Assembly (NCBI GenBank): GCA_003152315.1
Contig: PLZV01000022.1
Span: forward strand, 65,671-129,670
DNA from: Verrucomicrobiota bacterium
GTDB lineage: Bacteria; Verrucomicrobiota; Verrucomicrobiia; Palsa-1439
Reading direction: 5' to 3'
DNA length: 64,000 nucleotides
Below the pieces are notes generated by a model. It made no database searches, was not told the origin of the DNA, and worked only from the letters and a program-made list of their open reading frames with translations. The position numbers were made by a program, and so were the translations under genes. Positions within the stretch are counted from its first letter, which is position 1; each line of letters opens with the position of its first letter. Below are positions 12,448-48,418 of this stretch, one piece after another.

Positions 12448-12463
12448 ATATATTCCTTTCAAA

Positions 12464-13618: not shown

Positions 13619-14810
13619 GAACAGCCAAAGTCTCCTCTCTAGCTCGTGAAAGTTTCTTGTACACTACGACCCATTCGTCAGCAATTCTCGGCCAGGTGAA
13701 GCGTTTGCGCACCAGCGCGCGTGCGACAATGCCGCGGGCGGATAACTCCAGGGGGGCACTGGTTGCCTCCGCGAGTCCGGCGCGCAGCCCGGTGGGATCC
13801 AGATTAATGACCCAACCAGCCCCGGCCGCCAGCACCTCCGAGGCCAAGCCGACTTGTCGGCTCAACAGTACCGGCGTACCGCAGGCCATCGCTTCCACTG
13901 CGCCGATGCCAAAGTTCTCCTGGAAAGAACTCAAGGCGAACAAATTGGCTTCCGCTAGCGCCGCAGATTTCGCCGCGCCTTCAAGCCAACCAACCCAATG
14001 GACCGCATCCTCAAACCCGGTTCCACGCGTGATCTTGCGCAGCCGCTCGACGTACTGCGCCTCGCCATCGCCCGCGACGACGAGATGCCACGTGGCGAGT
14101 TTACCCTCCGCGTGCAGATCAAGGAAAGCTTCCAACAGCAGATCGACGCCCTTTTTGGGATGCAGGCGCGAGAGGCACAGCAACACCGGCGCGTTGGCAG
14201 GGATGCTGTGTTGCTCGCGGAACTTGCCGGTTGGCTCGACCGCCAGCAAGGCCTCGTCAACGCCGTTTGGAATGGTAATCCCTTTGTTCAGGTGCAAGGA
14301 TCGTTCGGTCAGTTCCCGCTCCTGTTCAGTTGTGTAATGGATCGCAGCCGCCTCACGGAGCTCGCGGCGGAAGAGGAAGTGCCAGGCCAACACCTTGCGC
14401 GACCATTTTTGTTGCATGCTCCATGGCTCCAGTGTGCCGAGGGGTCGCACGATATAGGGTACCCGGTGCCGCCGGCATGCCCGTGCGGCGGCGTGGGTCG
14501 CGTGGGAGAATACGGCGTGAATGTGAACGATGTCGTACCGTGCCACGTTTTCGTCCAGCCATTTCTGTAGCGAGCGCGAGAACTTGAACGCCTCGCTCCG
14601 GTCACGGCGAAAGAAGTGCGTCCGCACGCCGTGGTACAGGCTCGGTTTGTCGAGTACGACGGCGAGTCGGCCATTCCCGTCGGCGTCGGTCGTGCACAGC
14701 TCGATATCGATACCGGCGCGCTGTAGCGCGAGGCACATCTCGATGGCAGCCTGACTCGGGCCGCCGTAACGGGGAGCGACGGCTGGAATGACCTGGAGAA
14801 TCTTCATAAT
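13593..14810 (-). CDS. GT4 family glycosyltransferase
   Basis: MKILQVIPAVAPRYGG N-term, C-terminal LSSFQENFGIGAVEAMACGTPVL; start at internal Met to avoid 180-nt overlap. Confidence 0.75.
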   Translation of the reverse strand: MMKILQVIPAVAPRYGGPSQAAIEMCLALQRAGIDIELCTTDADGNGRLAVVLDKPSLYHGVRTHFFRRDRSEAFKFSRSLQKWLDENVARYDIVHIHAVFSHATHAAARACRRHRVPYIVRPLGTLEPWSMQQKWSRKVLAWHFLFRRELREAAAIHYTTEQERELTERSLHLNKGITIPNGVDEALLAVEPTGKFREQHSIPANAPVLLCLSRLHPKKGVDLLLEAFLDLHAEGKLATWHLVVAGDGEAQYVERLRKITRGTGFEDAVHWVGWLEGAAKSAALAEANLFALSSFQENFGIGAVEAMACGTPVLLSRQVGLASEVLAAGAGWVINLDPTGLRAGLAEATSAPLELSARGIVARALVRKRFTWPRIADEWVVVYKKLSRAREETLAVHEHTVDCH

Positions 14811-16156
14811 TGCGGTGAATCGGTGGACGTATCCACGGAGCCTTCCGGCAGACCCATGCTCGGGTGGTCCGGATAGAGGTACCGGAGCCCGGCCGTCAGG
14901 ACCACAGCGAGGACCAGGTTCGGCACAATCTCGATAATGGAACCACCAACGAGGAGGAGGAATTCGCCGATCAGAAACCACCTTGCGAAGGCAATCGGGG
15001 ATCCCCAGCGTAACTCCACGCCCGCTCGACGATCAGCGTACCGAACAAGAGCGCCGACGATGAACATACCGATGAGCACACCGTACGTGCCAAAATTCAC
15101 GTAGAATTCGAAGATCAGGCCCATCCCAACGGAAGTTCCTTCAGCAAACTTCACTCCCGTATAGTGGCTGACGAAGTTCATGCTTCCGGCCTGAATCGGT
15201 TTGTCCGGCCAGAGGACGCGTGGAATGATCGCCAGGACGCCCATCCACAGAGTCTCGCCTTTGCCGAAGTCGTTAGGAGTCCTCAGGTGAGCCATCGCGG
15301 CGCCGACCATCCAATTGTAATTCAACCGGCGATCAATGTCATCCAAGTGCCTTCGGTTGAGCGGATCGAACCACTCAAATTGTTGGAACGTTTCCTCCGC
15401 TTGATTGATACGCTCCTCCATTCGGCCACCCCCCCAGACGACGGAGCGTATTTGATTGCGATCACGCATGTACGTGACAAAAAACGAAAGCGCCAAATAA
15501 CCCACGGGAATTACTAGCAGCGCCATTGTCCAGCGCGGTCGATAAATCGCCACAAAAAAGCAGACCACAATGATGGTGTAGCCCACCCCGAAGCCCAGAA
15601 ACCCCTGGAGAATCAATGTCAGCAACGGGAATGCGGGTGCGGCCGCCAGGCAAAGCAACAGTTGCTTCCGGTCTTGATGGAGGTACGACTGCCAAATTCC
15701 AAAGCCGATCCCGGCAAATCCAAAGGCCTGCCCGCCCGACAGGATTGCCGCCGCTGACGGGATCTCACGGGCGCCCACGGCCCCCAAGACCAGGGAACCA
15801 ATACCGATTGTTAAAAAAAGACGGAGAAACTTGGAATCCGACTCCGCTATGCGAAACGGCGACGTCTCGTCCTCGACGTGAAAAAACAACGGGGCAAATC
15901 CAAAACATCCGATTGCGAACGCCGCCATGCCGGCGGTGCTCACTCCAAACCCGGCTGTCGTCGTAGAATACTCCGCTGACGAATACCACGGGAAAAAGGT
16001 GATTACGCCGCTGAACCAGTGGATGAGCGCCATGTTGCAGAAGAACGCCAGGACCAGTCCCGTCCCCTGTCCCTGGCGGCTCCACATGATGGTCAGCGAC
16101 AACACGCCGATGATCACCCAGGCCATCAGGCAAACAATGTAAAGGTTCTCACTCAT
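14804..16156 (-). CDS. O-antigen polymerase/ligase-like integral membrane protein (Wzy/WaaL superfamily)
   Basis: ~10-12 predicted TM helices with a large soluble loop (residues ~235-330) between TM blocks; no enzymatic soluble-domain motifs. Confidence 0.55.
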   Translation of the reverse strand: MSENLYIVCLMAWVIIGVLSLTIMWSRQGQGTGLVLAFFCNMALIHWFSGVITFFPWYSSAEYSTTTAGFGVSTAGMAAFAIGCFGFAPLFFHVEDETSPFRIAESDSKFLRLFLTIGIGSLVLGAVGAREIPSAAAILSGGQAFGFAGIGFGIWQSYLHQDRKQLLLCLAAAPAFPLLTLILQGFLGFGVGYTIIVVCFFVAIYRPRWTMALLVIPVGYLALSFFVTYMRDRNQIRSVVWGGGRMEERINQAEETFQQFEWFDPLNRRHLDDIDRRLNYNWMVGAAMAHLRTPNDFGKGETLWMGVLAIIPRVLWPDKPIQAGSMNFVSHYTGVKFAEGTSVGMGLIFEFYVNFGTYGVLIGMFIVGALVRYADRRAGVELRWGSPIAFARWFLIGEFLLLVGGSIIEIVPNLVLAVVLTAGLRYLYPDHPSMGLPEGSVDTSTDSPQL

Positions 16157-16208
16157 GTATTCACAGGTTCGCCGCTCGGTAACGGCACCAAAGGGGCAAT
16201 CCGGAATT

Positions 16209-17234
16209 TCATGTCGTCACGCGCTCCAGCATCGCTTCGAGCCGGTCGCGATAGGTGTTGTGGCCCTTGGTGACGACGCGATGCGCCGCTTCCTTCAGGC
16301 GGCTGCGCTCGCCATTATGCGCCAGCAAGTGCCGCAGCTTTACAACCATTTCCTCGCGTGTGCGAAAAAAGCTCACGGCTTCGCCGTCGTCACCGAAGAT
16401 CTCCCGGTGCTCCTCCGTGTCCTCGGTCAACATGCATGCGCCCATTGCAGGTAATTCAAAAGTGCGCATCACATTGCCGTCGCGGTTGGCGCGCCGCACC
16501 AGGCACAGGGAAACCTTCGCGGCGCTGACGGCTTTGCGCAGCGTTTGGGCATCGGCGTGGCCGCGCGCGGAGCCGGCGGTCTGCGGGTAGCGCTCCCAGT
16601 AGCCCCCGTAGAGCGCAACTTGAAAGCCCGCGTGGATTAGTGTAGCCATGTAAGGTACCCGGTCACGATCAGCTCCACCCGCAAACAGGATATCGGACGC
16701 GAACCGGGCGCGTTCGGAATCATTGGCCGGTGATTCGGGGAAATGCAATTCGGGCTCGTACGCAAACGGCAGATGACAGGCGCTCATGCATCCGAGTTGC
16801 CGCAAGTCGCTCAATATGGCGCGCCGCGGCGAGAAGACGTAGTCGTATTGCGGCAGTGCTCGCAAAAACCACGGCGCGCGGTGGGCGCGGTTCCATGGAT
16901 CGTCCGTCAGGTAATTCATGCGCCGCACATGAAGCTTGCCAATCTCTTTGAGTGCGGCCTCTTCGAGGGGCGCAACGCCGGTGGTCAACAACCATTTTGG
17001 CTGGACGTTGCGGCACGTCTCCAGCACCTTGGCACTGAACTCCTGCAGTCGCGTCGGACGCCGTCCGTGAAGCCACCAATTGACACGGTTCTGCCAGAAA
17101 GCCCCGTCGTATGCCTCGGTCAGGTCGCAGACGACGGTGTGGAGGCCCAACGCTTCGGCGGAGGACCTGAAATGCGCCCCCACGTGGACTGGGTCCGGGT
17201 TGCCAACCAGCAGCAGTGTCTCGTTCATGCGCAA
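16209..17234 (-). CDS. CgeB-family (Glyco_trans_1_2) glycosyltransferase-like protein
   Basis: C-terminal block KVSLCLVRRANRDGNVMRTFELPAMGACMLTEDTEE...FFRTREEMVVKL typical of CgeB/DUF3880 GT-B C-domain. Confidence 0.6.
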   Translation of the reverse strand: MRMNETLLLVGNPDPVHVGAHFRSSAEALGLHTVVCDLTEAYDGAFWQNRVNWWLHGRRPTRLQEFSAKVLETCRNVQPKWLLTTGVAPLEEAALKEIGKLHVRRMNYLTDDPWNRAHRAPWFLRALPQYDYVFSPRRAILSDLRQLGCMSACHLPFAYEPELHFPESPANDSERARFASDILFAGGADRDRVPYMATLIHAGFQVALYGGYWERYPQTAGSARGHADAQTLRKAVSAAKVSLCLVRRANRDGNVMRTFELPAMGACMLTEDTEEHREIFGDDGEAVSFFRTREEMVVKLRHLLAHNGERSRLKEAAHRVVTKGHNTYRDRLEAMLERVTT

Positions 17235-18430
17235 TGGAGGACGGGTTGTTCGTGCCGGACAATACTGCGGAACGCTTGCGCGATGCCCGCGGCAGCCTTC
17301 TCAGTGGTGTAGACGCTAACTTTTTCGCGACAATTCGCACGCGTTTCGGCATGTTCCGTTAGCGGCAAAATCCGGCAAATAGCCTGAGCCAGGCTTACGG
17401 CTGATCCGGTCTCGAATACCTCGCCGGTCTTACCGCGCTCAACCAAATCCGGAGCGCAACCCACAGCGTCGGACACAAGACACGGCAGACCGTGGTGCAA
17501 GGCGTCGTTGACGACCAAGCCCCACGTTTCCGACTGCACACTGGGCAACGCGAGCAAATCCGCGGCATGGTAGTACTGGCTCAATTGAGTTTGATTCTGA
17601 AAACCAAGAAAGTGCGCCGGGACAACAGGTGTTTGCTGGGCCAGCGATTGGAGTGCGTCCTGTAACTCACCACTGCCGAGGAAAAGAACCACGATCCTCT
17701 CGCGTGTCTTCGCTGGCAACTGTTTGATAGCTCGCAGCAGGATGTCGGGACCTTTCCGTGCACTCAGCTTGCCTGAGAAAAGGACCGCTTTCTTGTCGAC
17801 ACTGATCTGGAGCGCCGCACGCGTCAGGTCGCGCAACCGGACACGGGCTTCTTCGTCAGAATGGAATGGAGTTGTGTCCACGCAGTATGGCGAGAAGACC
17901 AGTTTGTCTTCCGGGCATCCGAGCCGGCAGAAATGTTCGTGCGAGCGCTGACCGACGTAGAGCAGGCGCTCGCAGCGCCGATAAAACCAGCGCAAGGCTT
18001 GATCGCGGGCCCAGGTTTTCAGCGCACTACGCTGGCGCGCATGGTCAGCCGTCTCACCGCGGAAAAGAATCGGAAAACCGGCATGACGGGCAGCCAGGAA
18101 GGCTTCGCGATGGAAGCGTGGGCGGTAGCCGAGCACCATCACGGCATCGGGCGCGGTTTCAACGAGTGCGTCCCGCAGTCCGCGCGTCGTCACTTCTCCA
18201 GCCGTGCTCGCGCCACCTTCGGCGACCCGTGAGAGAAACCGGGTACTGTAGCCCGAAAGCAAATCCGTGTCCCATGCGAATGTGGTGCCAAACTCGGAGT
18301 CGCGGTAGCCAGCCACGCTGAAGTCCGAACCGTAGATTGCCGTCACGGAAATGCCCCAATTCCTTTGGAGTTCCCGGTAGACCGGCGCGTGGTATTGGAT
18401 CGGATGCGTCTCGATGACGGTCAAAGACAT
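17225..18430 (-). CDS. GT4 family glycosyltransferase
   Basis: GT-B; LPSVQSETWGLVVNDALHHGLPCLVSDAVG (EX7E-region), LLFLGSGE. Confidence 0.8.
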   Translation of the reverse strand: MSLTVIETHPIQYHAPVYRELQRNWGISVTAIYGSDFSVAGYRDSEFGTTFAWDTDLLSGYSTRFLSRVAEGGASTAGEVTTRGLRDALVETAPDAVMVLGYRPRFHREAFLAARHAGFPILFRGETADHARQRSALKTWARDQALRWFYRRCERLLYVGQRSHEHFCRLGCPEDKLVFSPYCVDTTPFHSDEEARVRLRDLTRAALQISVDKKAVLFSGKLSARKGPDILLRAIKQLPAKTRERIVVLFLGSGELQDALQSLAQQTPVVPAHFLGFQNQTQLSQYYHAADLLALPSVQSETWGLVVNDALHHGLPCLVSDAVGCAPDLVERGKTGEVFETGSAVSLAQAICRILPLTEHAETRANCREKVSVYTTEKAAAGIAQAFRSIVRHEQPVLHCA

Positions 18431-18439
18431 GAGAAGTTT

Positions 18440-19321
18440 CTAGGCGAATACGGCATCGATACCGGTACGTCGTTCGGACGGACACAGCAGCAAAGTGCCC
18501 CAAACGCCGTGTGGATGGGGATGAATTTGATCAGGAACGGTCACCCATTGGTTGTTGTCCACGCGATACGCGGCGTAGTCGTGTCGACGGATCAGGTCGC
18601 GAATGGCGCAGTCCTCGTCCGGCGTGTGGGACTCGATCAAGAATAGTGGGCGGGTTTTGGCCACGACCCGGTCGCATCCCCGCAGTGCAAAGACTCCACC
18701 ACCTTCGATATCCATCTTGATGAAGTGCGGGCAGGGGTGGGGCTGCGCTCCCAAAAAGAACTCGTCCAGAGTCATACCCGGGACAGAAATCTTCTCGGCT
18801 TGAACCCGATCGCCCCCGGCCCACTCAGCGTTCAGCGAGGAGGTATGGTGATGGTGGCCCAGAAAAAACTCGACTGGACCGATTCGGTCCGTACAAGCGA
18901 AGGGGACAACCTCGATGTTCGACGCGTTGTTCAAGGAGAGATGGTCACGCAGTTTTTCGAGGGTTTGCGGCGCAGCCTCGAAGGCATAGACCCGCCCTTG
19001 GGGCACATAGTGGCGCGCGAACCAGAGCGAGAACAAGCCGATGTTGGCCCCCACGTCGCAGACGACCGCATCCGGAGCGACCAATGGATGGCCGTTCCGG
19101 TTCAATGTCGTGAGCACACGGAAGTTTGCCACTTCCCAGAGGCCGAGCATCGCGTGATAGTTGATGGTGGAGTTATAACGGAGACGGAGACCGCGCAAGG
19201 GGCCGAAAGGCACGCGGTACACATGTCCCTCACGGTAGTACAAACCTAGGATGCCGCGCACCAGACGAGAGTTCCATCGCGCATCACGCAATTCGTTAAA
19301 AAAAGAAAGACTCAAGAGCAC
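18440..19321 (-). CDS. FkbM-family SAM-dependent methyltransferase
   Basis: CDVGANIGLFSLWFA (TIGR01444 signature), HFIKMDIEGGG; start assigned to GTG overlapping upstream stop (alternative ATG at 19150). Confidence 0.65.
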   Translation of the reverse strand: MLLSLSFFNELRDARWNSRLVRGILGLYYREGHVYRVPFGPLRGLRLRYNSTINYHAMLGLWEVANFRVLTTLNRNGHPLVAPDAVVCDVGANIGLFSLWFARHYVPQGRVYAFEAAPQTLEKLRDHLSLNNASNIEVVPFACTDRIGPVEFFLGHHHHTSSLNAEWAGGDRVQAEKISVPGMTLDEFFLGAQPHPCPHFIKMDIEGGGVFALRGCDRVVAKTRPLFLIESHTPDEDCAIRDLIRRHDYAAYRVDNNQWVTVPDQIHPHPHGVWGTLLLCPSERRTGIDAVFA

Positions 19322-20463
19322 CTCGCATGGCGGGGCTGTTCCGTGAGCCGCAGCAGCACCGGGGCAAACTGCTCGGCGTAGTTCCACTCGCGCAGAATTC
19401 GTTGCCGCCCTCGCTCGCCCATGGCTCGCACCTCGGATGGGTGCTCTAGTAGCCACCGCACCGCTGTTGCAATACTGTGGGGATCGGCGGGATCCACGGC
19501 CAGCGCGTACCCACCGTCCACGAACAGTGCCCGCCAATCCGGCAGGTCGGACACGAGCAATGCCAAACCGCACGCGAGGTAGTCGAACGGTTTGTTCGAC
19601 GCCCCCGTCATGGCCTGTTCGTTATTGTCGAGGCTTTGCTTGGGCATCAGGGACAATCCCACGTCACATTGACGGCATAGCGCGAGCAATTCCTCCCGCT
19701 GCGGCACCGCACCAAGAAACTCCACGCGGTCGATAATTCCCAGTTGCGCGGCCAATTCCTGCAGTTGACGGACGTACCCCTTGTGGCCGATCGTTTCGTA
19801 GCCGACGATGCGCAGGTGCACTCCCTTGGGCAGCATGGACAGGGCAGTCAACGCCGTCGTGGGCAGGCGCGCTGGGACAATCGAGCCGTGGTAGAGCATC
19901 CGCAATGTAACGCCGTCCAGTGGTGGGCGCGTATCGGAAACTTCACTGCGCGCGGGACAGTTCCAGACACAGTCAACGTGGACGCCATTTCCGATTTCCT
20001 GCGCGAACCGTCCTGCGCGTTGCTCGTTCGGTAGAATGCATAGCTGCGCCCGAGCGGACAATGGACGTCGCGTCCAGAGCACGAATCGCATGAACCGGGT
20101 GCCCTCCGAATTCGGTGAGTCGTGTTCGTGATAGACCATTTGGATCCCGGGCAGGTAACTTAGCAACAAAGCCACGGGGCAGGACAGTGGGTCCGAAGCG
20201 TACACCCATGCCGGTCGCCAGCGGATTATCCAGGACAGCGTCCAGAGCGCGAACCACACGTAGTGCAGCTTTTGCCGCCAGCCCGCGGAGCGAAACGGAA
20301 GTTCCCTCACGGTGATCCGTTCGTGATGCGGGAACCGGAGGCCCTCCGCTCCCGTTCCCAGGAAGAGCACGTCCCAGCCGGCATCGGCAAGCAGTCGTGA
20401 GCTGTGTTCCAACGGAGGATAAAGGGCAGGATTGGTGTACTGGATGTAGACGATGCGGCGCAT
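19312..20463 (-). CDS. GT4 family glycosyltransferase
   Basis: GT-B; start at internal Met MRRIVYIQY to abut upstream gene; C-terminal GT4-like block. Confidence 0.7.
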   Translation of the reverse strand: MRRIVYIQYTNPALYPPLEHSSRLLADAGWDVLFLGTGAEGLRFPHHERITVRELPFRSAGWRQKLHYVWFALWTLSWIIRWRPAWVYASDPLSCPVALLLSYLPGIQMVYHEHDSPNSEGTRFMRFVLWTRRPLSARAQLCILPNEQRAGRFAQEIGNGVHVDCVWNCPARSEVSDTRPPLDGVTLRMLYHGSIVPARLPTTALTALSMLPKGVHLRIVGYETIGHKGYVRQLQELAAQLGIIDRVEFLGAVPQREELLALCRQCDVGLSLMPKQSLDNNEQAMTGASNKPFDYLACGLALLVSDLPDWRALFVDGGYALAVDPADPHSIATAVRWLLEHPSEVRAMGERGRQRILREWNYAEQFAPVLLRLTEQPRHARCS

Positions 20464-20470
20464 GAAGAGT

Positions 20471-21844: not shown

Positions 21845-21873
21845 TTGTGCTTCTGTGAAAACCACATCGTTCG

Positions 21874-22857: not shown

Positions 22858-22867
22858 AGATTACTTC

Positions 22868-23878: not shown

Positions 23879-23955
23879 GAGATAGTTCGGATGGATAGTG
23901 TGCGTGGTACCAAGCCTGCCTGACCAGCCGTGCCCCACCAGTCACCTGCGGCCGT

Positions 23956-30534: not shown

Positions 30535-30564
30535 TCGGTGCCCGTCCCTTGCCGTCTCTGGCCG

Positions 30565-34859: not shown

Positions 34860-34890
34860 TGTGATAACAGTCGCGTTGCCGCCGGGCTCG

Positions 34891-35553: not shown

Positions 35554-35571
35554 ACGTGATGAACGTGACCT

Positions 35572-36369: not shown

Positions 36370-36402
36370 GGTTTCATTCCTTTCACATTGTGCGTGTGTT
36401 CA

Positions 36403-38693: not shown

Positions 38694-38723
38694 GTTTCCT
38701 CGTTGCCGGAGTTCTATCCATTA

Positions 38724-39497: not shown

Positions 39498-39564
39498 GTT
39501 GTTACCTCAATACTTCGGCGCGTTCTTTTATAAGTGCTGTTTCCGATGGCGGACCTTCATCAAA

Positions 39565-41921: not shown

Positions 41922-41923
41922 TC

Positions 41924-42955
41924 CTAGCCTCGACTGGGCCTTTCTGCAAACGCACGCAGATGGTTACGGACGGAGGAAGGAAGAATCCGTCTCGCGATGC
42001 CACGGGAAGCTGTTTTCGCACGCTGGGCTCTTTTCGAGAATCGGAACAAATGTGGATGGCGGTAGGGCCACAGTTCTTCCTGCAGGGTCTTCCACACTTC
42101 CGTGCCAACCAATCCTGTGCTCCTGAGGTAACTTTCAAGCCAGACCAGATACTCACCACGCGCGGGGCTCGGGCCGTCGTAACTGAGTAAGCCTGTGCGG
42201 AGCGCCACCGCGCAGCTGCCATCGGGATGTTGGCGATACCAAGCCCAACATCCTTCCGCCACAAACACCGGGTAGCGGAGGAGAATCTTCTGGTTCAGCA
42301 CCAGGTCGTCGTACTGATCGCGGAAGGCATCCTCAAATCCGCCCACGGTCTCGACCGCGTCACGACGCAAGAGCATGCTGCACGGGCTTGGCAAGAAGGC
42401 TTCGCTGCGGATGAATTGGTTAGCCAGGGTAGGGGGACTGACCAAAGTATTTGGAGGCACACCAGTTTCTGCCAGGTAATCCCTGGATTGGTCTTCCGGT
42501 TTTCCCGACCAGCTAAACCACACGAGCGTCCGAGTGTACAACATGGCCGCTTCAGGATGCGCCTCCAGGGCCGGTACCTGATTGGCCAATTTACCCGGCA
42601 GCCAGACGTCATCAGCGTCCAGCAAGGCCACATATTCTCCACGCGCATGCCGCAAGCCAAGATTGCGCGCTGCGCTCTTACCGCGGTTCTCGTGACCGGG
42701 ATGCTCCAGGTAATGTATGCGATCCGGGGATTTTGCGGCGTAGTCGCGGGCGAACTGTGAACTACGGTCGGTCGAGCCGTCGTCCACCAGCCACAGTTCC
42801 CAGGTCGGGTAGGTCTGGGCCAGGACGCTTTCAACGGCTTCGGCAAGGAATTTCTCCGCGTTCAGAAAGATGATAATTGTCGAAACCAGCGCCTTGGTGA
42901 CGGGGCGATTGTGTTTTTCCGTGGCCATGGCCTGTTCTGGTGAATGATCGGACAT
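41924..42955 (-). CDS. GT2 family glycosyltransferase
   Basis: VSTIIIFLNAEKFL, LVDDGSTD, LDADD; start at internal Met (MSDHSP) abutting upstream gene. Confidence 0.75.
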   Translation of the reverse strand: MSDHSPEQAMATEKHNRPVTKALVSTIIIFLNAEKFLAEAVESVLAQTYPTWELWLVDDGSTDRSSQFARDYAAKSPDRIHYLEHPGHENRGKSAARNLGLRHARGEYVALLDADDVWLPGKLANQVPALEAHPEAAMLYTRTLVWFSWSGKPEDQSRDYLAETGVPPNTLVSPPTLANQFIRSEAFLPSPCSMLLRRDAVETVGGFEDAFRDQYDDLVLNQKILLRYPVFVAEGCWAWYRQHPDGSCAVALRTGLLSYDGPSPARGEYLVWLESYLRSTGLVGTEVWKTLQEELWPYRHPHLFRFSKRAQRAKTASRGIARRILPSSVRNHLRAFAERPSRG

Positions 42956-43641
42956 CAGCCTCGATGGTGGGGACGGAATTTCAGGTCGCCCACATACGTC
43001 ACTTTGAGGTTGTCGGGGGAACCGGGAACGAGGCGGACCTTGTGCCCCGCTCGTTTGACGACGGCCGCGGTGCCTTCTTCGTTCCAATTGTTGCGTGCCG
43101 CGAGGCGGTTCGCGTGAAGGAGGATTTCCCGTCGGTATGCGTGCGGAATCTGCAGTGCGACAACCGAACGGCGAGGCAGAATCATTTTCAGCCCCTGCTT
43201 TTCCAAAAGACCCAGGCTGTCCCGCACGGGGACTTCCGTGTACAAGGCCACCGCACCGTGGCGTTGCACCTCTGCCAGCAGCCTCTCGAATAACTCGGCG
43301 GTGACAAACGGTCTTGCGACTTCGTGGAGTAGTATAATCGGCTTCGTACAGCACCGCAGGAGGCGGGACAAGGTTTCCTGCCGGGTCGCACCGCCGGCGA
43401 CCACCTGTACGGTTTTCGGCACGAGCCGACGGGCTCGCGCCAGATCCTCGGGTCGTACCCCAACGATGATCTCGGTGGCGAAGGGCGTTACAAGCGCCAC
43501 GGCACGTTCGAGCAGCGTCCGGCCTTCAAGACGAAGAAACGCCTTGGGGCGTCGACCGATACGATCACCCGAGCCGGCGGCCAGGATCAGGACGCTGACG
43601 CAGTCGGGTTTCACTTGCGAAGCGCGATTTACAGTGACCAT
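42955..43641 (-). CDS. IspD/TarI-family sugar-alcohol-phosphate cytidylyltransferase
   Basis: VSVLILAAGSGDRIG..PKAFL motif of IspD/TarI nucleotidyltransferases; adjacent to TagF-like gene. Confidence 0.75.
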   Translation of the reverse strand: MVTVNRASQVKPDCVSVLILAAGSGDRIGRRPKAFLRLEGRTLLERAVALVTPFATEIIVGVRPEDLARARRLVPKTVQVVAGGATRQETLSRLLRCCTKPIILLHEVARPFVTAELFERLLAEVQRHGAVALYTEVPVRDSLGLLEKQGLKMILPRRSVVALQIPHAYRREILLHANRLAARNNWNEEGTAAVVKRAGHKVRLVPGSPDNLKVTYVGDLKFRPHHRG

Positions 43642-44720
43642 AGCCGGGTTATTCCTTGTACGGCACGACGAGCCGCCCACTTGACCTTCCTCGCAGCGAG
43701 GCGCGCCGCAGGTACGCTGGCGAGATAAGACAGGTGATTCGAAGGTATGGTGGCCGCCAGCTTCTCCACGTTATGGCAAAGTCGCTCCACCGCCTTGCCA
43801 TCCGTCAGGTCGCCGAAAAGAAGTTTCCGATAATGCGCGCGGCGGTCAGATCCCCGCACGGGATCGGACAGGGCGGCGGCTACCGTTGCTGGCAATTCTT
43901 CCACGTTTTCAATTTGTCTTCCCATATCTCGCCAACTCCATTCGAAGCCGCGCGGATCGAAATACTCACAGCCGAACCGATCAGGATTGTTGATCAGGAT
44001 CATCGGCCGATCGAGGGCCAGGTAATAGAGTTGGACGCTGGAAGCGTCCGTGATGAGGGCGTCCGCGGCGCGGAGGTAGGGCATCACATCGTCGTTTGCG
44101 TTCGCAACCAGGTGAACGTCTTCGTGCTCGTGCGCGAGACGGCGCCAGGTCTCCATCCATTCCGGGCTCTGTTCGGCGATCAACGGATGCGGCTTGATGA
44201 TGATGGAGATGTCCTGTCGGGAACCGCGAATCAATTCGACCAGACGAGCGCCCAGCATACCCGCTGAAGAAAGAGGACGGTTGAATGTTGGTGCGTAGAG
44301 TACGGTCTTCTGTCCGGGTTTCCGGTCGAACGGCAAAGCCGGGCTGTCGCCGCGAAAGAGAGGATCCAGACCCACGTAGCCAATGACCCAGAAATCCTGG
44401 CGCGGCTTGGAGCCGCCCTGTTGGTACCAGTCCCGCATGAAATCACTTGTCACGCACAGGTAGTCGCATTCGTTGGCGCCCTGGTACGCCACCATCTTGC
44501 TGGCCAGTCCATGTCGCGTGTGAACGAAGATGGTCTTCGGCAGACGCGGTCGCAATTCCCCGAAGATGGCCTCGGCCATGATCGTCACGTGTGGCTGAAA
44601 ATCGAAAAGTGCCTCACGGTTCTCGGTATACAAACACCAATGCCTGCGGCTCAACATTTCGTGGATCGGTCGCAGGATAGCGTCGTGAAACTTATTGCAG
44701 GGAAGAAATGCAACGCGCAT
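43629..44720 (-). CDS. CDP-alditol:polymer phosphotransferase, TagB/TagF (Glyphos_transf) family
   Basis: KTVLYAPTFN, IIIKPHP, LITDASSVQLYYLALDRPMI: TagF-family signature blocks. Confidence 0.72.
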   Translation of the reverse strand: MRVAFLPCNKFHDAILRPIHEMLSRRHWCLYTENREALFDFQPHVTIMAEAIFGELRPRLPKTIFVHTRHGLASKMVAYQGANECDYLCVTSDFMRDWYQQGGSKPRQDFWVIGYVGLDPLFRGDSPALPFDRKPGQKTVLYAPTFNRPLSSAGMLGARLVELIRGSRQDISIIIKPHPLIAEQSPEWMETWRRLAHEHEDVHLVANANDDVMPYLRAADALITDASSVQLYYLALDRPMILINNPDRFGCEYFDPRGFEWSWRDMGRQIENVEELPATVAAALSDPVRGSDRRAHYRKLLFGDLTDGKAVERLCHNVEKLAATIPSNHLSYLASVPAARLAARKVKWAARRAVQGITRLWSL

Positions 44721-44839
44721 ATCACTCTCGTCCAAACCGGGTGAGTGTACTGGCTCGCCTTGAAAATACTGCCGGCCGAAACTGCTCGGCCGAGGGCAGG
44801 CGCGACACTGGCAATCCCGCGAAGACGGTCCGGATGGGC

Positions 44840-45412
44840 CTAGGACGCGTCAACGAGTTGGGAACGGCTGACGATCAATCGGGCCTGGCAACCCAGGGTT
44901 GAAAGCAGAACGGCGACACGATCATGGTCGCTCATCTCTTGCAGCACGACCGCCTGCAAACCGCGCAACGGGCCGTCGGCGATCTCGACGAGATCGCCGG
45001 GGTGAAAGCCGGGGCGTACCGTCACGATATCGACCGCCTCGCCCGCCCATTGCTGGAGTTGCTCGATGATGGAATCATCGACCGGGGTGGGGTGGCCGCC
45101 AAAGCTGACGACCCCGACAACTTGCGGCGCGTATTGCACCGCTCGGAAATTCTGGGCCAGATTCAGACGGCAAAAGAAGTAGCGTGGGAACAGCGGGCCG
45201 ACAATCCAGCGCTTGACGCGGCGGATGGTTTTGAGGTGCTTGAGTCGCGGATAAAAGGTATCGAAGCCGAGTACTTCGCGACAATAGCGCTCGGCGCCGG
45301 CTTCCTTGCGCGGGCGCGTGTGGACGCAGAGCCAGCGCGTGACGTTGGGCAGGGGATCGACGGGGGTGGCGGCCCGTCGGGAACTGGGCTCGTTGTTCAC
45401 AGGATCAATCAT
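44840..45412 (-). CDS. NusG-family transcription antiterminator paralog (RfaH/UpxY-like)
   Basis: N-terminal NGN-like WLCVHTRPRKE, C-terminal KOW-like GDLVEIADGPLRGLQAVV; 190 aa. Confidence 0.72.
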   Translation of the reverse strand: MIDPVNNEPSSRRAATPVDPLPNVTRWLCVHTRPRKEAGAERYCREVLGFDTFYPRLKHLKTIRRVKRWIVGPLFPRYFFCRLNLAQNFRAVQYAPQVVGVVSFGGHPTPVDDSIIEQLQQWAGEAVDIVTVRPGFHPGDLVEIADGPLRGLQAVVLQEMSDHDRVAVLLSTLGCQARLIVSRSQLVDAS

Positions 45413-45563
45413 TGCTCAAATGCCTGCCTTTGTACAGCCCGGGCATGCTGCCGCCATTCCGGTGCATTCTCCCCGCTCCAACGCGAATGCCGGCTGACTT
45501 CCTTCGCCCGTTTGTCGGTTGCCGCACATTGCGGCGCACCATCACTGCTCCACGGGAGGAGCG

Positions 45564-47687
45564 TTACGCGGCGCCATTACCTTTCCGCTTCTTGTGGTAG
45601 TAGGAGTACTTGTACGGATAGTAGTAATATCCGTGCAGTTCCTGGTCGATGTTGTTCATGACCACACCGACGAGCGGAGCGCCGCACTCGCGCAGTCGTT
45701 GCATTGTGCGCGCGACGATTTCACGACGAATTTTGCCAAAGCCAATGACATAAATAACACCTTGCACGTACGGCAACAGCACGAGCGGATCGCTGACTGC
45801 GGTGACCGGCGGGCTGTCAATGATGACGCGGTCGTACTGCTGGCACGCATCGGCGATCAATTCGCGGATGCGGTCGGACGCGAGCAATTCCGGCGCGTTG
45901 GGCGGTATGCTGCCAACGTGAAGTACGTCCAGATTAGGGACGTTCGTCGGTTGGACGACCTCTTGCAAGGTGACGTTGCTGGTCAGGTAAAGTGAGATTC
46001 CCTTGTCGGGGTCGGCCGGGAAGACGTGGTGTTGCACCGGGTTGTGCAAATCACAATCAATCAGCAGCGTACGTTGTTTATTGGTCGCGAACGCGATGGC
46101 GAGGTTGGCGGAAACAACGGACTTGCCTTCTCCGGGCGCCGTGCTGGTGACGAGCAGCGGCTTGGCCGAGTTTGCCTCCGGCTTCAAGCTGATGCTCGCA
46201 CGCAGGTTGCGGAAGGCCTCGGCGGAGATGGAATGCGGATCGGCCTGGAGCACGCGGCCATTCTGGGAAGCATCCTTGAGATCAATGTGCGGCACGCCGG
46301 TGAGCAGCGGTAACCCGAGCGAATCGACGTCCTCGTAGGTCTTGATCTTGTCATCGAACGTGTTGAGCAAATAGCTGGCGGCGAAGGCGGCGCAGACGCC
46401 GAGGAGCAGCCCGACCGCCAAGTTGCGACCTTTCTGCGGCTTGAATGGAGAGCCGGGAACCTGAACGGGATCAATGAGACGGATATTGTTGGATTGCAGC
46501 TTATCGGCGACGCCGGTTTCTTTTATACGGGTGAGGATGGAATCATAAAGCTGGCGGTCAGCCTCGGCATTGCGCTTGAGCATATTGTAATCCGGCTGCT
46601 TGCTATCCATCTCCATCGATTCCTGTTCCTGTTCATGGAGCGCTTTTTGCAGGATTTCCTCATTCGCCTTGGCCATCAAATACCCGGCTTGTAGGGCATT
46701 GATGGCATCGTTGCACGCACTGGTGAGCTTGCCAGAAATCTCGTTCAGTTCGGTTTGGATGGCGACCATCGACGGGTGCTGGTTGCGGTAACGCTCGCGG
46801 AGGACGGCGAGAGTAATCTGTTTGTCGTTCAATTGTTTGCGCAACTCGCTTACCTTCGAGTTGTTCATAATGACCGGGATCTCGGAGGCGCTGCGCCCGG
46901 CATCCAAAAGGGCTTTGACCCCGTTCCATTCAGCTTCAGCGCTGAGGCGCGCTTTTTGTGCCTGGGTCACCGAGTTGTTCAGATCCTTCAGCTTATCGAC
47001 CACGCTGTTCTGGCGTTCCTCGCCGGACTGCGTGCGCTGCCGGTATTCAGCCAAAGCGAATTCGGATTTCTTGACCTTGAGCTTATATTCATCCGCCTGT
47101 TCGCTGAGCATGCGAACGGCGTCGGTCGACGCCAGCATCTTTTTTTCGAGGTTCTGCTTGATGTATTGCTGGGCTACCCCGGTGGCAAGATCCGCGGCCA
47201 GTTTCGGATCGGGATGATCCACGTGAATGTCAATGATGGTGGTGTTACGTTCTGGCACAACGCTGAGACGTCCTTGGAGCGCCCCGGCGAGGTCACCCTG
47301 GGAGCCAGCGTAGGCGAGGAAGCTGGGATTCCTGTCCAGACGGAGCGTCTGGACGACCTGTTCGCACAGGGTGCGGCTCTGCATGATCTTGATCTGGGTG
47401 TTGAAGTATTGGTCGTCACGCGTATCGGTGCTCAATACGTCCTGGATATTCAGCACCTTCATCGTTTCCGATGCCACCTCCAGCGCAGCCGTCGCCCGGT
47501 AAATGGGGGTCTGGTGGTAGGTGTAGATGAGATTGATCGCCAGTACGGTCAGAAACGAAATGAGAGCCACCCATTTGTGTTCGAGGACAATCAGGAGATA
47601 ATGTCGCCAATGCAAACCGACCGTGGGGCGCCGCCCGCTGGGAGCGCGCTGCTGCCCGTTAGGGTTATAGGGAATGAGGGCTTGCAT
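45564..47687 (-). CDS. wzc: Polysaccharide co-polymerase/BY-tyrosine kinase (Wzc/GumC/EpsG-like)
   Basis: N-terminal Wzz-type TM+coiled-coil periplasmic domain, C-terminal Walker A TSTAPGEGKS, Walker B VIIDSPP, C-terminal Tyr cluster YYYYPYKYSYY. Confidence 0.88.
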   Translation of the reverse strand: MQALIPYNPNGQQRAPSGRRPTVGLHWRHYLLIVLEHKWVALISFLTVLAINLIYTYHQTPIYRATAALEVASETMKVLNIQDVLSTDTRDDQYFNTQIKIMQSRTLCEQVVQTLRLDRNPSFLAYAGSQGDLAGALQGRLSVVPERNTTIIDIHVDHPDPKLAADLATGVAQQYIKQNLEKKMLASTDAVRMLSEQADEYKLKVKKSEFALAEYRQRTQSGEERQNSVVDKLKDLNNSVTQAQKARLSAEAEWNGVKALLDAGRSASEIPVIMNNSKVSELRKQLNDKQITLAVLRERYRNQHPSMVAIQTELNEISGKLTSACNDAINALQAGYLMAKANEEILQKALHEQEQESMEMDSKQPDYNMLKRNAEADRQLYDSILTRIKETGVADKLQSNNIRLIDPVQVPGSPFKPQKGRNLAVGLLLGVCAAFAASYLLNTFDDKIKTYEDVDSLGLPLLTGVPHIDLKDASQNGRVLQADPHSISAEAFRNLRASISLKPEANSAKPLLVTSTAPGEGKSVVSANLAIAFATNKQRTLLIDCDLHNPVQHHVFPADPDKGISLYLTSNVTLQEVVQPTNVPNLDVLHVGSIPPNAPELLASDRIRELIADACQQYDRVIIDSPPVTAVSDPLVLLPYVQGVIYVIGFGKIRREIVARTMQRLRECGAPLVGVVMNNIDQELHGYYYYPYKYSYYHKKRKGNGAA

Positions 47688-47692
47688 GGGGG

Positions 47693-48418
47693 TTAAAAAA
47701 TGGTTTCGGGCACGGATACAACGTCATCGGGTTTCAGTCCAACATCCTTGCTCCGGTCTCCACCCTTGATGATGGCGGCGACGTTCACGACGATCTTTGT
47801 AACGCCGCCATTCTCGGTGCGGATGACGGTGATACGGTCGGTAGCCGCTACATCCGTGAATCCCCCCGCTCGCGCGATGGCCTGCACCACCGTGAGCCCT
47901 TCGTCGCCAATGTCGTAGGAACCGGGTGACTTTACCTGGCCGAGAATGACGAGGCGGCGGCTGTTGGGGTGATCCACGAGAACCGTGACCTGCGGGTTGA
48001 CGAGGTAGCTGCGTCCCAGCAAGTCCTTGAGTTTGGTTTCCGTCTCACCAACGGTCAGTCCGCCGACCTGGACGGAGCCAAGAAGCGGATACGTGATATA
48101 GCCTTGCGGCGAGACACGCCTTTGCACGGAAAGGTCAGCCTCGTTGAAGACGGAGACCTGAATCGTGTCCAACGGCTGGATGCGATAATCGTTTTGGACG
48201 GGCGAGGGTTTGTTGGCGGCCGGTTGGGCGTCATGCGGGATGCCCGCTGTGCCTAGCGGAAGTTGTGGCGCACCGGGGGTGACAGTGCGCACCTGTATCG
48301 TTGTCGGGCTGCAAGAGGTGAGTGCCAAGCAAAGCAATACACCCAGCGCCATGTCTGCGTGTGCGAGCGTAGCCTTTCGCGTCCTGTTCAAACTCTGTTC
48401 AGCCTTCGTCATATGCAT
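47693..48418 (-). CDS. wza: Polysaccharide export outer-membrane lipoprotein (Wza/Poly_export + SLBB)
   Basis: Lipobox LALTSC, PLDTIQVSVF...GYITYPLLGSVQVGGLTV (Poly_export), SLBB-like C-term; start uncertain among 3 Met. Confidence 0.78.
   Translation of the reverse strand: MHMTKAEQSLNRTRKATLAHADMALGVLLCLALTSCSPTTIQVRTVTPGAPQLPLGTAGIPHDAQPAANKPSPVQNDYRIQPLDTIQVSVFNEADLSVQRRVSPQGYITYPLLGSVQVGGLTVGETETKLKDLLGRSYLVNPQVTVLVDHPNSRRLVILGQVKSPGSYDIGDEGLTVVQAIARAGGFTDVAATDRITVIRTENGGVTKIVVNVAAIIKGGDRSKDVGLKPDDVVSVPETIF

Follow-up and report, generated by a model that had tools for sequence, protein, structure and literature searches.

The window, i.e., the whole 64,000-nt stretch of DNA analysed, comes from an uncultured metagenomic organism and carries a surface-polysaccharide cluster of about 49 kb (937–50035), which lies on the minus strand and runs in a single direction throughout. 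The cluster encodes the ABC exporter proteins Wzm and Wzt, a Wzy-like membrane protein (designated WzyL here), Wzc, an OPX lipoprotein with a β-barrel protein, about 20 glycosyltransferases (GTs) and one initiating transferase (PGT). Components of the ABC-exporter route and of the Wzx/Wzy route are mixed in one locus without Wzx. Such a mixture of parts of the two canonical routes had been claimed in an earlier note on this DNA, and the gene content of the 64 kb bears it out; Pfam and NCBIfam searches and gene calls recovered all the elements named there, at coordinates that coincide with gene boundaries. The features are as follows.

937..2868, minus strand: initiating transferase, WecA/MraY-type PNPT with a C-terminal CoA_binding_3 region (PF00953, E 3e-44; PF13727, E 4.5e-10)
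2979..14807, minus strand: conserved downstream block of GT4, GT4, methyltransferase, AsnB-like amidotransferase, NodU-like carbamoyltransferase, GT2, GT4, Gmd, GDP-sugar epimerase/reductase and methyltransferase (Pfam, NCBIfam, synteny)
14804..16156, minus strand: WzyL, Wzy-like integral membrane protein, putative repeat-unit polymerase, 450 aa (sub-threshold Wzy-family matches)
16209..23878, minus strand: conserved block upstream of WzyL, with GT2, GT2, GT4, GT4, FkbM methyltransferase, GT4 and Glyco_trans_1_2 (Pfam)
23956..24882, minus strand: 308-aa conserved protein right after Wzt (52% identity to the paralog 28641–29609)
24879..26153, minus strand: Wzt, ABC ATPase with a C-terminal Wzt_C carbohydrate-binding domain, 424 aa (PF00005, PF14524)
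26154..27017, minus strand: Wzm, ABC-2 permease, 287 aa (PF01061 ABC2_membrane, E 8e-17)
27014..32342, minus strand: six genes, encoding three tandem DSDI paralogs of ~300 aa, a GNT-I-like EDD protein, a hexapeptide acyltransferase and a DUF5672 protein (paralogy, weak GNT-I, Hexapep, DUF5672)
32339..39497, minus strand: sugar-nucleotide module (Pfam matches)
39565..44720, minus strand: TagF-like glycerol/ribitol-phosphotransferase, IspD/TarI-like cytidylyltransferase, GT2, polysaccharide deacetylase and GT4 (PF04464, PF01128, PF00535, PF01522, PF00534)
44840..45412, minus strand: RfaH/UpxY-like NusG paralog, putative operon-specific antiterminator (PF02357; TIGR01955 RfaH, E 7.8e-24; UpxY, E 4.7e-18)
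45564..47687, minus strand: Wzc, PCP-2a copolymerase with a BY-kinase domain (Wzz, GNVR, TIGR01007)
47693..48418, minus strand: short OPX (Wza-like) lipoprotein, 241 aa (Poly_export PF02563, 82.8 bits, cutoff 28; SLBB)
48884..50035, minus strand: outer-membrane β-barrel of the BBP2_2 family, 383 aa (PF10082, 73.7 bits, cutoff 23.7)

Gene products of the cluster

The wzm gene adjoins wzt directly upstream. The ATPase domain of Wzt occupies residues 54–185 (PF00005, 74.7 bits), with the Walker A motif GRNGAGKS and the signature YSSGM, and the C-terminal extension of about 170 aa, described earlier as an extra domain, proved to contain Wzt_C (residues 266–390; PF14524, 36.2 bits, cutoff 30.4). 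The best solved relative is the full-length WzmWzt of Aquifex aeolicus (8DKU, E 1.7e-65), and the alignment spans Wzt residues 15–386, the carbohydrate-binding domain included. To our knowledge, Wzt proteins with Wzt_C export a fully polymerised, end-capped glycan in every characterised system; FkbM and other methyltransferases and the carbamoyltransferase are candidate capping enzymes of the cluster.

Pfam and NCBIfam scans found no Polysacc_synt or MOP match among the large ORFs picked as likely genes in the 64 kb, and a six-frame hydropathy scan of the same stretch left no multi-TM ORF unexplained; the five ORFs with at least three hydropathy peaks encode the PGT, WzyL, Wzm, Wzc and an NfeD protein (54167–55666). 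The claimed lack of Wzx, which a Wzx-family gene uncovered on re-annotation would have overturned, therefore holds within these 64 kb. No initiating transferase other than the product of 937–2868 is encoded in the 49 kb; this product resembles WecA (TIGR02380, E 9.7e-41, under the model cutoff).

WzyL shows ten hydropathy peaks (10-TM) and matches three Wzy families below their curated cutoffs: PF14296 O-ag_pol_Wzy (E 8.7e-5, 21.8 bits, cutoff 26.6), NF046084 XrtY-associated Wzy-like (E 3.6e-12, 45.7 bits, cutoff 420) and TIGR04370 repeat-unit polymerase (E 4.8e-6, 25.8 bits, cutoff 40). PF14296 was matched by 20 of the 24 WzyL family members compared, and Wzy_C/WaaL (PF04932) at E ≤ 0.05 by none of them, nor by the WzyL of the window; hhalign against E. 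coli WaaL gave a probability of 0.5%, and an ‘IPxxxWPxxP’ motif is common to WzyL and E. coli WzyE (the longest hhalign alignment obtained). The 24 aligned members share 37 invariant residues, with the invariant motifs FVTYMRDR, PRxxWPDKP, GTSxGxG and EFYxNFG. An AlphaFold2 model of WzyL (pLDDT 84.4, pTM 0.87) resembled no PDB structure (best TM-score 0.18), and profile searching against PDB sequences gave no match. Since the family scores fall below the curated cutoffs and the PDB offers no match, the putative polymerase activity of WzyL rests on remote similarity. Judged by these profiles, WzyL belongs to the Wzy superfamily, not to some unrelated transporter, and is polymerase-like rather than WaaL-like; of the label ‘Wzy/WaaL-like’ given in the earlier note, the first half is supported by this remote similarity and the second is not, and the ‘O-antigen-ligase logic’ attached to it is not upheld.

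The tyrosine autokinase domain of Wzc scores well above the model cutoff (TIGR01007, 174.6 bits, cutoff 108), and the C-terminus carries a tyrosine cluster, HGYYYYPYKYSYY. Kinase-bearing PCP-2a proteins partner Wzy polymerases, and PCP-3 proteins belong to ABC capsules. The OPX lipoprotein has the lipobox LTSC and contains Poly_export and SLBB domains only, ending with SLBB. The BBP2_2 gene lies 466 bp upstream of the OPX gene and encodes a protein with a signal peptide and the C-terminal end ...LLHF, which probably forms the pore for the short OPX protein. A composite OPX/β-barrel translocon is defined by an OPX protein of ≤280 aa without a C-terminal pore helix and a coupled barrel gene (Schwabe et al. 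2022, PMC9601211), and the two proteins of the cluster agree with this definition in length, domains and the adjacent barrel.

The 16209–23878 block has orthologs in the same order across phyla. The 308-aa protein encoded after Wzt (23956–24882) also follows Wzt in the related loci L008 (650 bits) and L087 and is probably a GT-A glycosyltransferase; in 27014–32342, the three tandem paralogs (48–53% identity) and the GNT-I-like protein are probably extra glycosyltransferases. The sugar-nucleotide module (32339–39497) comprises two nucleotidyltransferases, a 4,6-dehydratase-like SDR, a C-methyltransferase, a PIG-L deacetylase, an RmlC-like epimerase, a DUF4910 protein and an SDR; its product would be an unusual deoxy sugar, probably C-methylated, and the gene order is kept in the Verrucomicrobiae relative L087. 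The RfaH and UpxY scores of the 44840–45412 product are both under the cutoffs; an ops-like sequence is located at 45444–45455 and a terminator-like hairpin at 44793–44772.

Related loci in other phyla

The WzyL family comprises 620 cluster representatives at E ≤ 1e-30, and a conserved block, [Wzc]-[AsnB]-Wzm-Wzt-GTs-WzyL-GTs-carbamoyltransferase, is found in Verrucomicrobiota, Acidobacteriota, Gemmatimonadota, Planctomycetia, Thermodesulfobacteriota, Omnitrophota and Nevskia. Of the related loci, 82 had 9 kb or more of sequence upstream of WzyL; at least 30 of these encode a Wzt ortholog (150–380 bits) there, 17 encode Wzm and 11 encode Wzc. The Wzt count is a lower bound, because the Wzt–WzyL distances pile up at 8–9 kb and the fetch limit was 10 kb. 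Locus L007, for instance, has no Wzt within 10 kb, but Wzt is present about 11.6 kb upstream on the same contig (L087). Neither Wzt nor Wzx was in the fetched range of about 50 of the 82 loci. The order Wzc-AsnB-Wzm-Wzt-GT2-GT4-WzyL occurs in L033 and L035, compact loci with about six glycosyltransferases in which Wzm, Wzt, WzyL and Wzc are still together and a methyltransferase-like gene (weak match, E 0.036) follows Wzt; the order Wzc-AsnB-Wzm-Wzt-GT2 is found in L088, a short contig that stops before any WzyL. WzyL family members also occur in cyanobacteria and in Chloroflexaceae MAGs. The cyanobacterial locus L089 encodes a close Wzt homolog with no WzyL within the fetched stretch; Wzt proteins of this clade are thus not confined to WzyL clusters.

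The arrangement in the window is not a one-off mosaic, and its recurrence across phyla suggests that the ABC exporter does the usual job of Wzx. Polysaccharide loci are known recombination hot spots, and the gene order could be an accident, with Wzm/Wzt or WzyL a non-functional passenger and an active route that uses only one of them. This explanation, which has no direct support beyond the recombination-prone type of locus, is highly improbable: the Wzm/Wzt and WzyL genes are both intact in the window, the invariant residues of WzyL persist over 24 members, and Wzt and WzyL occur together in those 30 or more loci of several phyla.

One confirmed sub-clade, comprising L080, L090 and L175, is of the Wzx type. 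In L080 and L090, a Polysacc_synt_3 Wzx (E 1.6e-85) is encoded between AsnB and the first GT2, which is the slot of Wzm-Wzt elsewhere, and is accompanied by orthologs of most glycosyltransferases of the block and of the carbamoyltransferase. In L175, the Wzx is 65% identical to this one and is encoded first in the glycosyltransferase block, where the fetched contig begins; the upstream glycosyltransferases are present, and the fetched stretch ends inside WzyL. No Wzm or Wzt was found in the fetched stretches of the Wzx-type loci, which retain most of the conserved glycosyltransferases. The WzyL of L080 is about 50% identical to the WzyL proteins of Wzt-type loci and is closer to them than they are to the WzyL of the window; the flippase type has therefore changed within the family. 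Locus L051, from an assembly riddled with frameshifts, has just part of a Polysacc_synt_3 gene.

These loci bear on the suggestion, made in the earlier note, that one locus yields two polymers. In such a scheme, Wzm/Wzt with some of the glycosyltransferases would make an O-antigen-like glycan, and WzyL, Wzc and OPX a separate EPS or capsule, with a Wzx encoded elsewhere. Some 20 glycosyltransferases plus sugar-nucleotide modules are indeed far above the usual need of one repeat unit, they include the lineage-specific TagF/IspD and CDP-sugar modules, and dual-route loci are reported for Gram-positive rhamnose cell-wall polysaccharides (PMC9574508). However, two polymers appear quite unlikely, because the 49 kb encode a single initiating transferase, Wzm-Wzt is part of a block conserved across phyla and Wzx takes the slot of Wzm-Wzt in one sub-clade; moreover, the compact loci keep all four proteins with few glycosyltransferases, and the fetched Wzx-type stretches, in which Wzm/Wzt is absent, have most of the conserved glycosyltransferases.

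A proposed assembly pathway

We propose, with a probability of roughly one half, that Wzm/Wzt stands in for Wzx in a pathway that otherwise depends on Wzy, Wzc and OPX and forms a single assembly line; we infer this mechanism, with each biochemical step and the ligand of Wzt_C, from gene content and synteny. The WecA-type transferase (937–2868) would start the glycan on undecaprenyl phosphate, and the approximately 20 mostly single-domain glycosyltransferases, together with methyl-, carbamoyl-, acyl- and amidotransferases, would assemble a lipid-linked unit of defined, decorated structure at the cytoplasmic face. The carbohydrate-binding domain of Wzt may recognise a decoration at the end of the completed unit, for which O-methyl is the leading candidate, and Wzm/Wzt would carry this unit across to the periplasmic side, driven by ATP. 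WzyL would then polymerise the units under the control of the Wzc autokinase, and the polymer would exit via the short OPX lipoprotein and its β-barrel partner, while the RfaH/UpxY-like factor would keep the ~44-kb operon transcribed. The proposed product is a large, heavily modified surface or secreted heteropolysaccharide; the numerous single-domain GT2 and GT4 enzymes are easier to reconcile with a defined large unit than with a homopolymer made processively.

The replacement of Wzx is favoured because all the parts are present with one PGT and no Wzx in 64 kb, because the combination is conserved over phyla (Wzt in at least 30 of 82 loci), because Wzx fills the Wzm-Wzt slot in L080, L090 and L175, because the copolymerase is the kinase-bearing, Wzy-partnering PCP-2a and not a PCP-3, and because WzyL matches polymerase families and not WaaL. 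Counting against it, characterised Wzt_C exporters take an end-capped polymer, and potential cap-making methyltransferases are present here; in addition, the similarity of WzyL to Wzy polymerases is remote, a wzx gene may lie elsewhere in the genome, about 50 of the 82 loci have neither Wzt nor Wzx in the fetched range, a single Wzx-type sub-clade is confirmed, and close Wzt homologs also occur in clusters whose fetched stretch lacks WzyL. A classical ABC-dependent pathway is the main alternative: polymerisation and end-capping of the whole glycan would take place in the cytoplasm, Wzt_C would recognise the product for export by Wzm/Wzt, WzyL would be a periplasmic ligase or transferase acting from undecaprenyl diphosphate to lipid A-core, protein or another lipid, and Wzc, OPX and the barrel would lead to the surface. 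Glycans exported on Und-PP by ABC transporters depend on a transferase of the Wzy/WaaL superfamily in the periplasm (for example, WaaL or the S-layer O-oligosaccharyltransferase WsaB), and WzyL could be this enzyme; the above-cutoff Wzt_C, the A. aeolicus O-antigen exporter as the closest solved relative, the methyltransferases and carbamoyltransferase as possible capping enzymes and the weak methyltransferase-like match after Wzt in the compact loci are in line with this pathway. Nevertheless, it seems somewhat unlikely, given that the ligase family was matched by 0 and the polymerase family by 20 of 24 WzyL members and that the copolymerase is of the kinase type. In addition, Wzx, which normally flips single repeat units, occupies the exporter slot beside most of the same glycosyltransferases; the glycosyltransferases are numerous and single-domain, whereas ABC O-antigen loci typically have few multi-domain polymerising enzymes; and WzyL relatives occur in Chloroflexaceae, which are generally held to lack LPS.

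Returning to the replacement of Wzx by Wzm/Wzt, the ABC flippase PglK and Wzx are reportedly mutually substitutable (Alaimo et al. 2006, EMBO J), and our literature search found no Wzx-for-ABC replacement inside a single cluster family. Tentatively, the clusters may represent a hybrid route, widespread in soil and freshwater phyla, in which Wzt_C would check the completeness of a large lipid-linked unit, which would then be flipped and handed over to WzyL with Wzc and OPX/barrel, the ABC exporter and Wzx being swapped in one lineage; if so, polysaccharide assembly gains a fourth bacterial route.

Comparison with known systems

The combination of an ABC-2 exporter, a periplasmic copolymerase and OPX recalls group 2/3 capsules (KpsMT-KpsE-KpsD), but the PCP of the cluster is a kinase PCP-2a and not a KpsE-type PCP-3, and a Wzy-like protein is present. 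The score of Wzm with the KpsM model is low (NF050053, 35.2 bits, cutoff 300), and Pfam scans of the window gave no match to KpsC/KpsS-like Kdo-linker transferases; the ‘group 2/3 capsule logic’ suggested earlier is thus not supported. An XrtA/PEP-CTERM EPS locus was also considered and rejected: TIGR03007, TIGR03018, TIGR03027, TIGR03016 and TIGR03108 were all below their cutoffs, and the scans of the window gave no exosortase match. Cyanobacterial EPS genes are mostly scattered over the genome and are not known to form one conserved operon. Cyanobacteria resemble the cluster in having wzm/wzt (kpsM/kpsT), wzc, wza and wzy in one genome (Pereira et al. 2015, PMC4594306; KpsM Slr0977 study, PMC7885315).

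The export systems of E. coli O9a and A. aeolicus WzmWzt (PDB 8DKU/7K2T) share with the cluster the adjacent permease and ATPase genes, Wzt_C, the WecA-type initiator and possible cap methyltransferases. Unlike them, the cluster adds a Wzy-like protein, a kinase-type PCP, OPX/barrel and numerous single-domain glycosyltransferases; no WaaL was found in the window. In PglK of Campylobacter and Wzk of Helicobacter (PMC2841628), an ATP-driven transporter takes the role of Wzx on an Und-PP-linked glycan, as proposed here for Wzm/Wzt, but these proteins are fused half-transporters with a different ABC fold and without a carbohydrate-binding domain, and their glycan goes on to an oligosaccharyltransferase or WaaL instead of a Wzy polymerase. 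The system of Schwabe et al. (2022, PMC9601211) likewise has a Wzy-family protein, a PCP-2a Wzc with a tyrosine cluster, a short OPX lipoprotein without an α-helical pore, an adjacent β-barrel, many single-domain glycosyltransferases and one PGT; the cluster differs from it in having Wzm/Wzt instead of Wzx, a WecA-type and not a WbaP-type PGT, and a WzyL that scores below every curated Wzy cutoff.

Organisation of the locus

The ORF survey and composition profile delineated a single run of co-directional genes on the minus strand, starting at about 50.0 kb and ending at 0.9 kb. The large ORFs of the run and the remaining 14 kb were searched against Pfam and NCBIfam, and gene boundaries were adjusted by the gene calls of identical public contigs.

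Features of the gene run, in order of transcription

48884-50035 (-): BBP2_2 beta-barrel
47693-48418 (-): OPX lipoprotein, 241 aa
45564-47687 (-): Wzc
44840-45412 (-): RfaH/UpxY-like NusG paralog
39.6-44.7 kb (-): TagF-like phosphotransferase, IspD-like cytidylyltransferase, GT2, deacetylase, GT4
32.3-39.5 kb (-): sugar-nucleotide module including a C-methyltransferase
27.0-32.3 kb (-): four unassigned proteins, hexapeptide acyltransferase, DUF5672 protein
26154-27017 (-): Wzm, ABC-2 permease
24879-26153 (-): Wzt, ATPase
23956-24882 (-): conserved 308-aa protein, next after Wzt
between the 308-aa protein and WzyL (-): GT2, GT2, GT4, GT4, FkbM methyltransferase, GT4, Glyco_trans_1_2
14804-16156 (-): WzyL, the Wzy-like membrane protein
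after WzyL (-): GT4, GT4, methyltransferase, AsnB-like amidotransferase, NodU-like carbamoyltransferase, GT2, GT4, Gmd, epimerase/reductase, methyltransferase
937-2868 (-): WecA-type phosphoglycosyltransferase (PGT) fused to a CoA_binding_3 region

All of the machinery named in the earlier note (Wzm, Wzt with Wzt_C, WzyL, Wzc and Wza) is present in the window, and the span assigned to it fits the gene borders, 14804 being the end of wzyL and 48418 the start of the OPX gene. The extra C-terminal domain of Wzt is real (Wzt_C, residues 266-390; 36.2 bits, Pfam cutoff 30.4), and Wzt residues 15-386 align with full-length Aquifex aeolicus WzmWzt (E 1.7e-65). Wzc contains Wzz and GNVR domains, a tyrosine autokinase domain above the cutoff and a C-terminal tyrosine cluster. 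Wzx is missing, as the earlier note had it: a hydropathy scan of the entire window in six frames picked out no more than five ORFs with at least three peaks, namely the PGT, WzyL, Wzm, Wzc and an NfeD protein.

Several proteins of the locus have unusual features. The PGT is an uncommon fusion: a WecA/MraY-type PNPT domain occupies residues 84-238, and residues 392-612 resemble the N-terminal portion of WbaP/WcaJ-type transferases (TM and CoA_binding_3), the catalytic Bac_transf domain of those enzymes being absent. Three tandem paralogs of about 300 aa (29641-32342; 48-53% identical to one another) have in common VGD...W(I/M)DSDI, which looks like a DxD glycosyltransferase signature; Pfam, NCBIfam and PDB-sequence searches with them returned no match, and neither did phmmer searches of PDB sequences with the unassigned paralog families. 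The genes 28641-29609 and 23956-24882 encode another pair of paralogs (52% identical, with FNRP...ADGPR...LEDDC motifs in both), one member of which has a weak GNT-I match; the place of 23956-24882 after Wzt is kept in the Verrucomicrobiae relatives L008 and L087. The module at 33046-39497, also kept in L087, encodes a C-methyltransferase (Methyltransf_13/14), a PIG-L deacetylase, an RmlC-like epimerase and an aminopeptidase-like DUF4910/DUF2172/HTH_47 protein, which points to a deoxy sugar with a branched chain or some other unusual structure.

The NusG paralog is preceded by an ops-like GGCGGCAGCATG (45444-45455, one mismatch) and followed, right before the long biosynthetic operon, by a GC-rich terminator-like hairpin (44793-44772); this layout suggests operon-specific antitermination, the motif count being not significant (seven one-mismatch ops/JUMPStart matches, 3.8 expected). 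An operon of one FloA flotillin gene and two NfeD genes (52635-55666) lies directly upstream of the locus, and a small prepilin-type N_methyl protein is encoded near 51.5-51.9 kb. At 59828-61600, two ORFs of about 570-590 aa on opposite strands overlap almost completely; domains (PAS-GAF-HisKA_3-HATPase sensor kinase) were found in the minus-strand ORF only, and the plus-strand one is probably a shadow ORF.

A conserved cluster in several phyla

Loci were fetched around WzyL homologs (79 genomic and 80 metagenomic, plus those from contig look-ups), and their six-frame ORFs were annotated by comparison with the window's own proteins. The following order recurs across phyla: [Wzc]-[AsnB]-Wzm-Wzt-GT2-GT4-GT4-GT4-Glyco_trans_1_2-WzyL-GT4-GT4-(AsnB)-GT2-carbamoyltransferase-GT4-(Gmd/epimerase)-(PGT). 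In 82 loci the sequence extends 9 kb or more upstream of WzyL. Of these, at least 30 contain an ortholog of Wzt, at least 17 of Wzm and at least 11 of Wzc; these counts are lower bounds, since Wzt-to-WzyL distances crowd at 8-9 kb, just within the 10-kb reach of the fetch, and since one locus (L007) was scored as lacking Wzt, which actually lies about 11.6 kb upstream of WzyL, in L087 of the same contig. The suspicion, raised by L007, that the ABC module is a recent insertion or a mosaic was rejected, as L087 has the order of the window including Wzt. The compact clusters L033 and L035, with about six glycosyltransferases, retain Wzc, Wzm, Wzt and WzyL together, and the short contig L088 begins in the same way as these (Wzc-AsnB-Wzm-Wzt-GT2); the gene after Wzt in L033 has a weak methyltransferase similarity only. 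Wzt_C is present in the best 120 Wzt homologs listed, save a couple of truncated entries. The recurrence across loci and phyla indicates that the combination of ABC exporter, Wzy-like protein and Wzc is a conserved arrangement rather than a chance feature of one locus.

An additional multi-TM gene of GT-C-like type (PMT_2, GT87 or DUF1420) is found in many related clusters, often near the GT2 and carbamoyltransferase genes (L005/L013 15572-16969, L077 13741-15147 and L037 17845-20088, among others). It points to a decoration of the polymer in the periplasm; the window itself has no such gene. Among complete or nearly complete genomes, the cluster is found in OY970256.1, OY969780.1, OY970174.1, OY969918.1, OZ244991.1, NZ_CP182236.1, KE650771.1, the assembly of Nevskia soli and the bin to which ENA ERZ28653421 scaffold_329 belongs; culturable carriers would be Nevskia soli, Fischerella or Anabaena strains and relatives of Bryobacter. 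L043 (CAZOAZ010000045.1), filed as an uncultured Bifidobacterium MAG contig, has a complete cluster of Gram-negative type (Wza, Wzc, Wzm, Wzt, WzyL) and is probably mis-binned.

WzyL and the place of the flippase

Identical proteins were found on metagenomic contigs only, and the closest named relatives of WzyL belong to Verrucomicrobiia MAGs (56-60% identity). Searched with a family profile, 1.84 billion cluster representatives yielded 620 proteins at E<=1e-30 (1,593 at E<=1e-10). Members of the family were seen in Verrucomicrobiota, Acidobacteriota, Gemmatimonadota, Planctomycetia, Cyanobacteria, Chloroflexaceae, Thermodesulfobacteriota, Omnitrophota, Methylomirabilota and the gammaproteobacterium Nevskia soli. 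Across 24 aligned members, 37 residues are invariant, among them the motifs FVTYMRDR, PRxxWPDKP, GTSxGxG and EFYxNFG. The window WzyL has ten hydropathy peaks, and its domain matches are all sub-threshold and all in polymerase families. PF14296 (O-ag_pol_Wzy) is matched by 20 of the 24 members and PF01901 (putative O-antigen polymerase) by three; none matches Wzy_C/WaaL. The O-antigen-ligase logic raised in the earlier note is not supported by these matches. The AlphaFold2 model is confident (pLDDT 84.4, pTM 0.87) and has no significant neighbour among solved structures. Comparisons of the family profile with E. coli WaaL, WzyE, WcaD and WzxE were all insignificant, the only long alignment being with WzyE (210 columns, likewise insignificant), where the family's IPRxxWPDKP is paired with IPSWLWPGRP. 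From these domain matches and the structure and profile comparisons, WzyL appears to be a Wzy-superfamily protein leaning to the polymerase side. Tandem pairs of WzyL paralogs occur in a Bryobacteraceae MAG (L027) and in metagenomic loci (L098, L101-L103, L114, L116-L118, L120, L122), with three WzyL-matching ORFs in L118 and in the short contig L103, a hint that polymerisation is redundant or makes two or more linkages.

In a Methylomirabilota MAG (L080), a Polysacc_synt_3 Wzx flippase (E 1.6e-85) lies between AsnB and the first GT2, the position of Wzm-Wzt in other loci, and a near-identical metagenomic copy (L090) has it at the same position; both are accompanied by WzyL, the carbamoyltransferase and orthologs of most of the block glycosyltransferases. 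In the more distant L175, Wzx shares 65% identity with the L080 flippase, the fetched part of WzyL (N-terminal 127 residues) is 61% identical to its L080 counterpart, and the order is Wzx-GT4-methyltransferase-GT2-GT4-FkbM-GT4-Glyco_trans_1_2-x-WzyL. The L080 WzyL is about 50% identical to WzyL of Wzt-type loci, closer than those proteins are to the window WzyL; the flippase type has thus changed within the family.

Multi-TM ORFs of related loci were scanned for a hidden Wzx. In the first two scans, 2 of 20 were Polysacc_synt_3, that of L080 and a fragment at a comparable position in L051, a frameshift-ridden assembly; the other recognisable ones were Acyl_transf_3, UbiA, DUF1420, GT87, a Bac_transf PGT and a weak DUF6044, PMT_2 being present among the L005 gene calls. 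The remaining ORFs had no match, and ten more in a third scan gave nothing. Wzx homologs of about 43-44% identity lie in unrelated clusters (Coleofasciculus L176, Gemmatimonadaceae L177), and a Cyanophyceae Wzt homolog (51% identity) belongs to a cluster rich in sulfotransferases, the fetched stretch of which has no WzyL (L089); neither the Wzt clade nor the Wzx clade is exclusive to WzyL clusters.

The replacement by Wzx, the single PGT and the compact relatives all speak against the synthesis of two polymers from one locus, an option raised in the earlier note; the very large enzyme complement of the window locus would suit that explanation, which we consider improbable.

Proposed pathway and comparison with known systems

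The Wzx/Wzy-dependent and ABC-transporter-dependent routes are regarded as alternatives that differ in the site of polymerisation. The simplest account of the gene content and synteny, to which we give about even odds, is that there is one pathway only, with Wzm/Wzt in the role of Wzx. The glycan would be started by the WecA-type enzyme, and a large lipid-linked unit would be built and decorated by many single-domain transferases; Wzt_C would recognise a terminal decoration and Wzm/Wzt would move the unit across the membrane, where units may be polymerised by WzyL under the control of Wzc and the polymer exported via the short OPX protein and the beta-barrel. The main argument against it is that, to our knowledge, Wzt_C-bearing exporters, wherever studied, transport finished, capped polymers. 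Because of this precedent and of the candidate capping methyltransferases present in the locus, a classical ABC route with WzyL as a ligase is kept as a serious, if rather unlikely, rival.

If the single pathway is correct, the conserved multi-phylum cluster would show that membrane translocation is a swappable module, a case strengthened by the natural replacement of the ABC exporter by Wzx alongside orthologs of most of the block glycosyltransferases, and the carbohydrate-binding domain of Wzt could gate single repeat units as well as finished chains. The ABC-type and Wzx-type clusters are natural paired variants and could help to engineer the export of repeat units that are large or bear many decorations. 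In abundant, little-studied soil phyla (Acidobacteriota, Verrucomicrobiota, Gemmatimonadota), the product is probably a major polymer of the matrix or capsule.

In the part of the literature covered, neither this conserved hybrid cluster nor the substitution of an ABC exporter for Wzx inside a single family of clusters was found to be described. As a near precedent, Alaimo et al. reportedly found in 2006 that PglK and Wzx are interchangeable. Others are Helicobacter Wzk (PMC2841628) and the cyanobacterial genomes repeatedly said to hold components of both routes (PMC4594306, PMC7885315). The group 2/3 capsule logic suggested in the earlier note is not borne out by the Pfam and NCBIfam scans, the window differing from such systems in having no PCP-3, no KpsC/KpsS-like match and a Wzm below KpsM level. 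The 241-aa OPX protein (Poly_export and SLBB, no C-terminal pore helix) and the adjoining BBP2_2 barrel fit the composite translocon of Schwabe et al. 2022 (PMC9601211), where OPX/barrel pairs were assigned by genomic context to Wzx/Wzy (185) or ABC (14) systems or left unassigned (287); the pair at 47693-50035 matches the composite class known from Myxococcus EpsY/EpsX.
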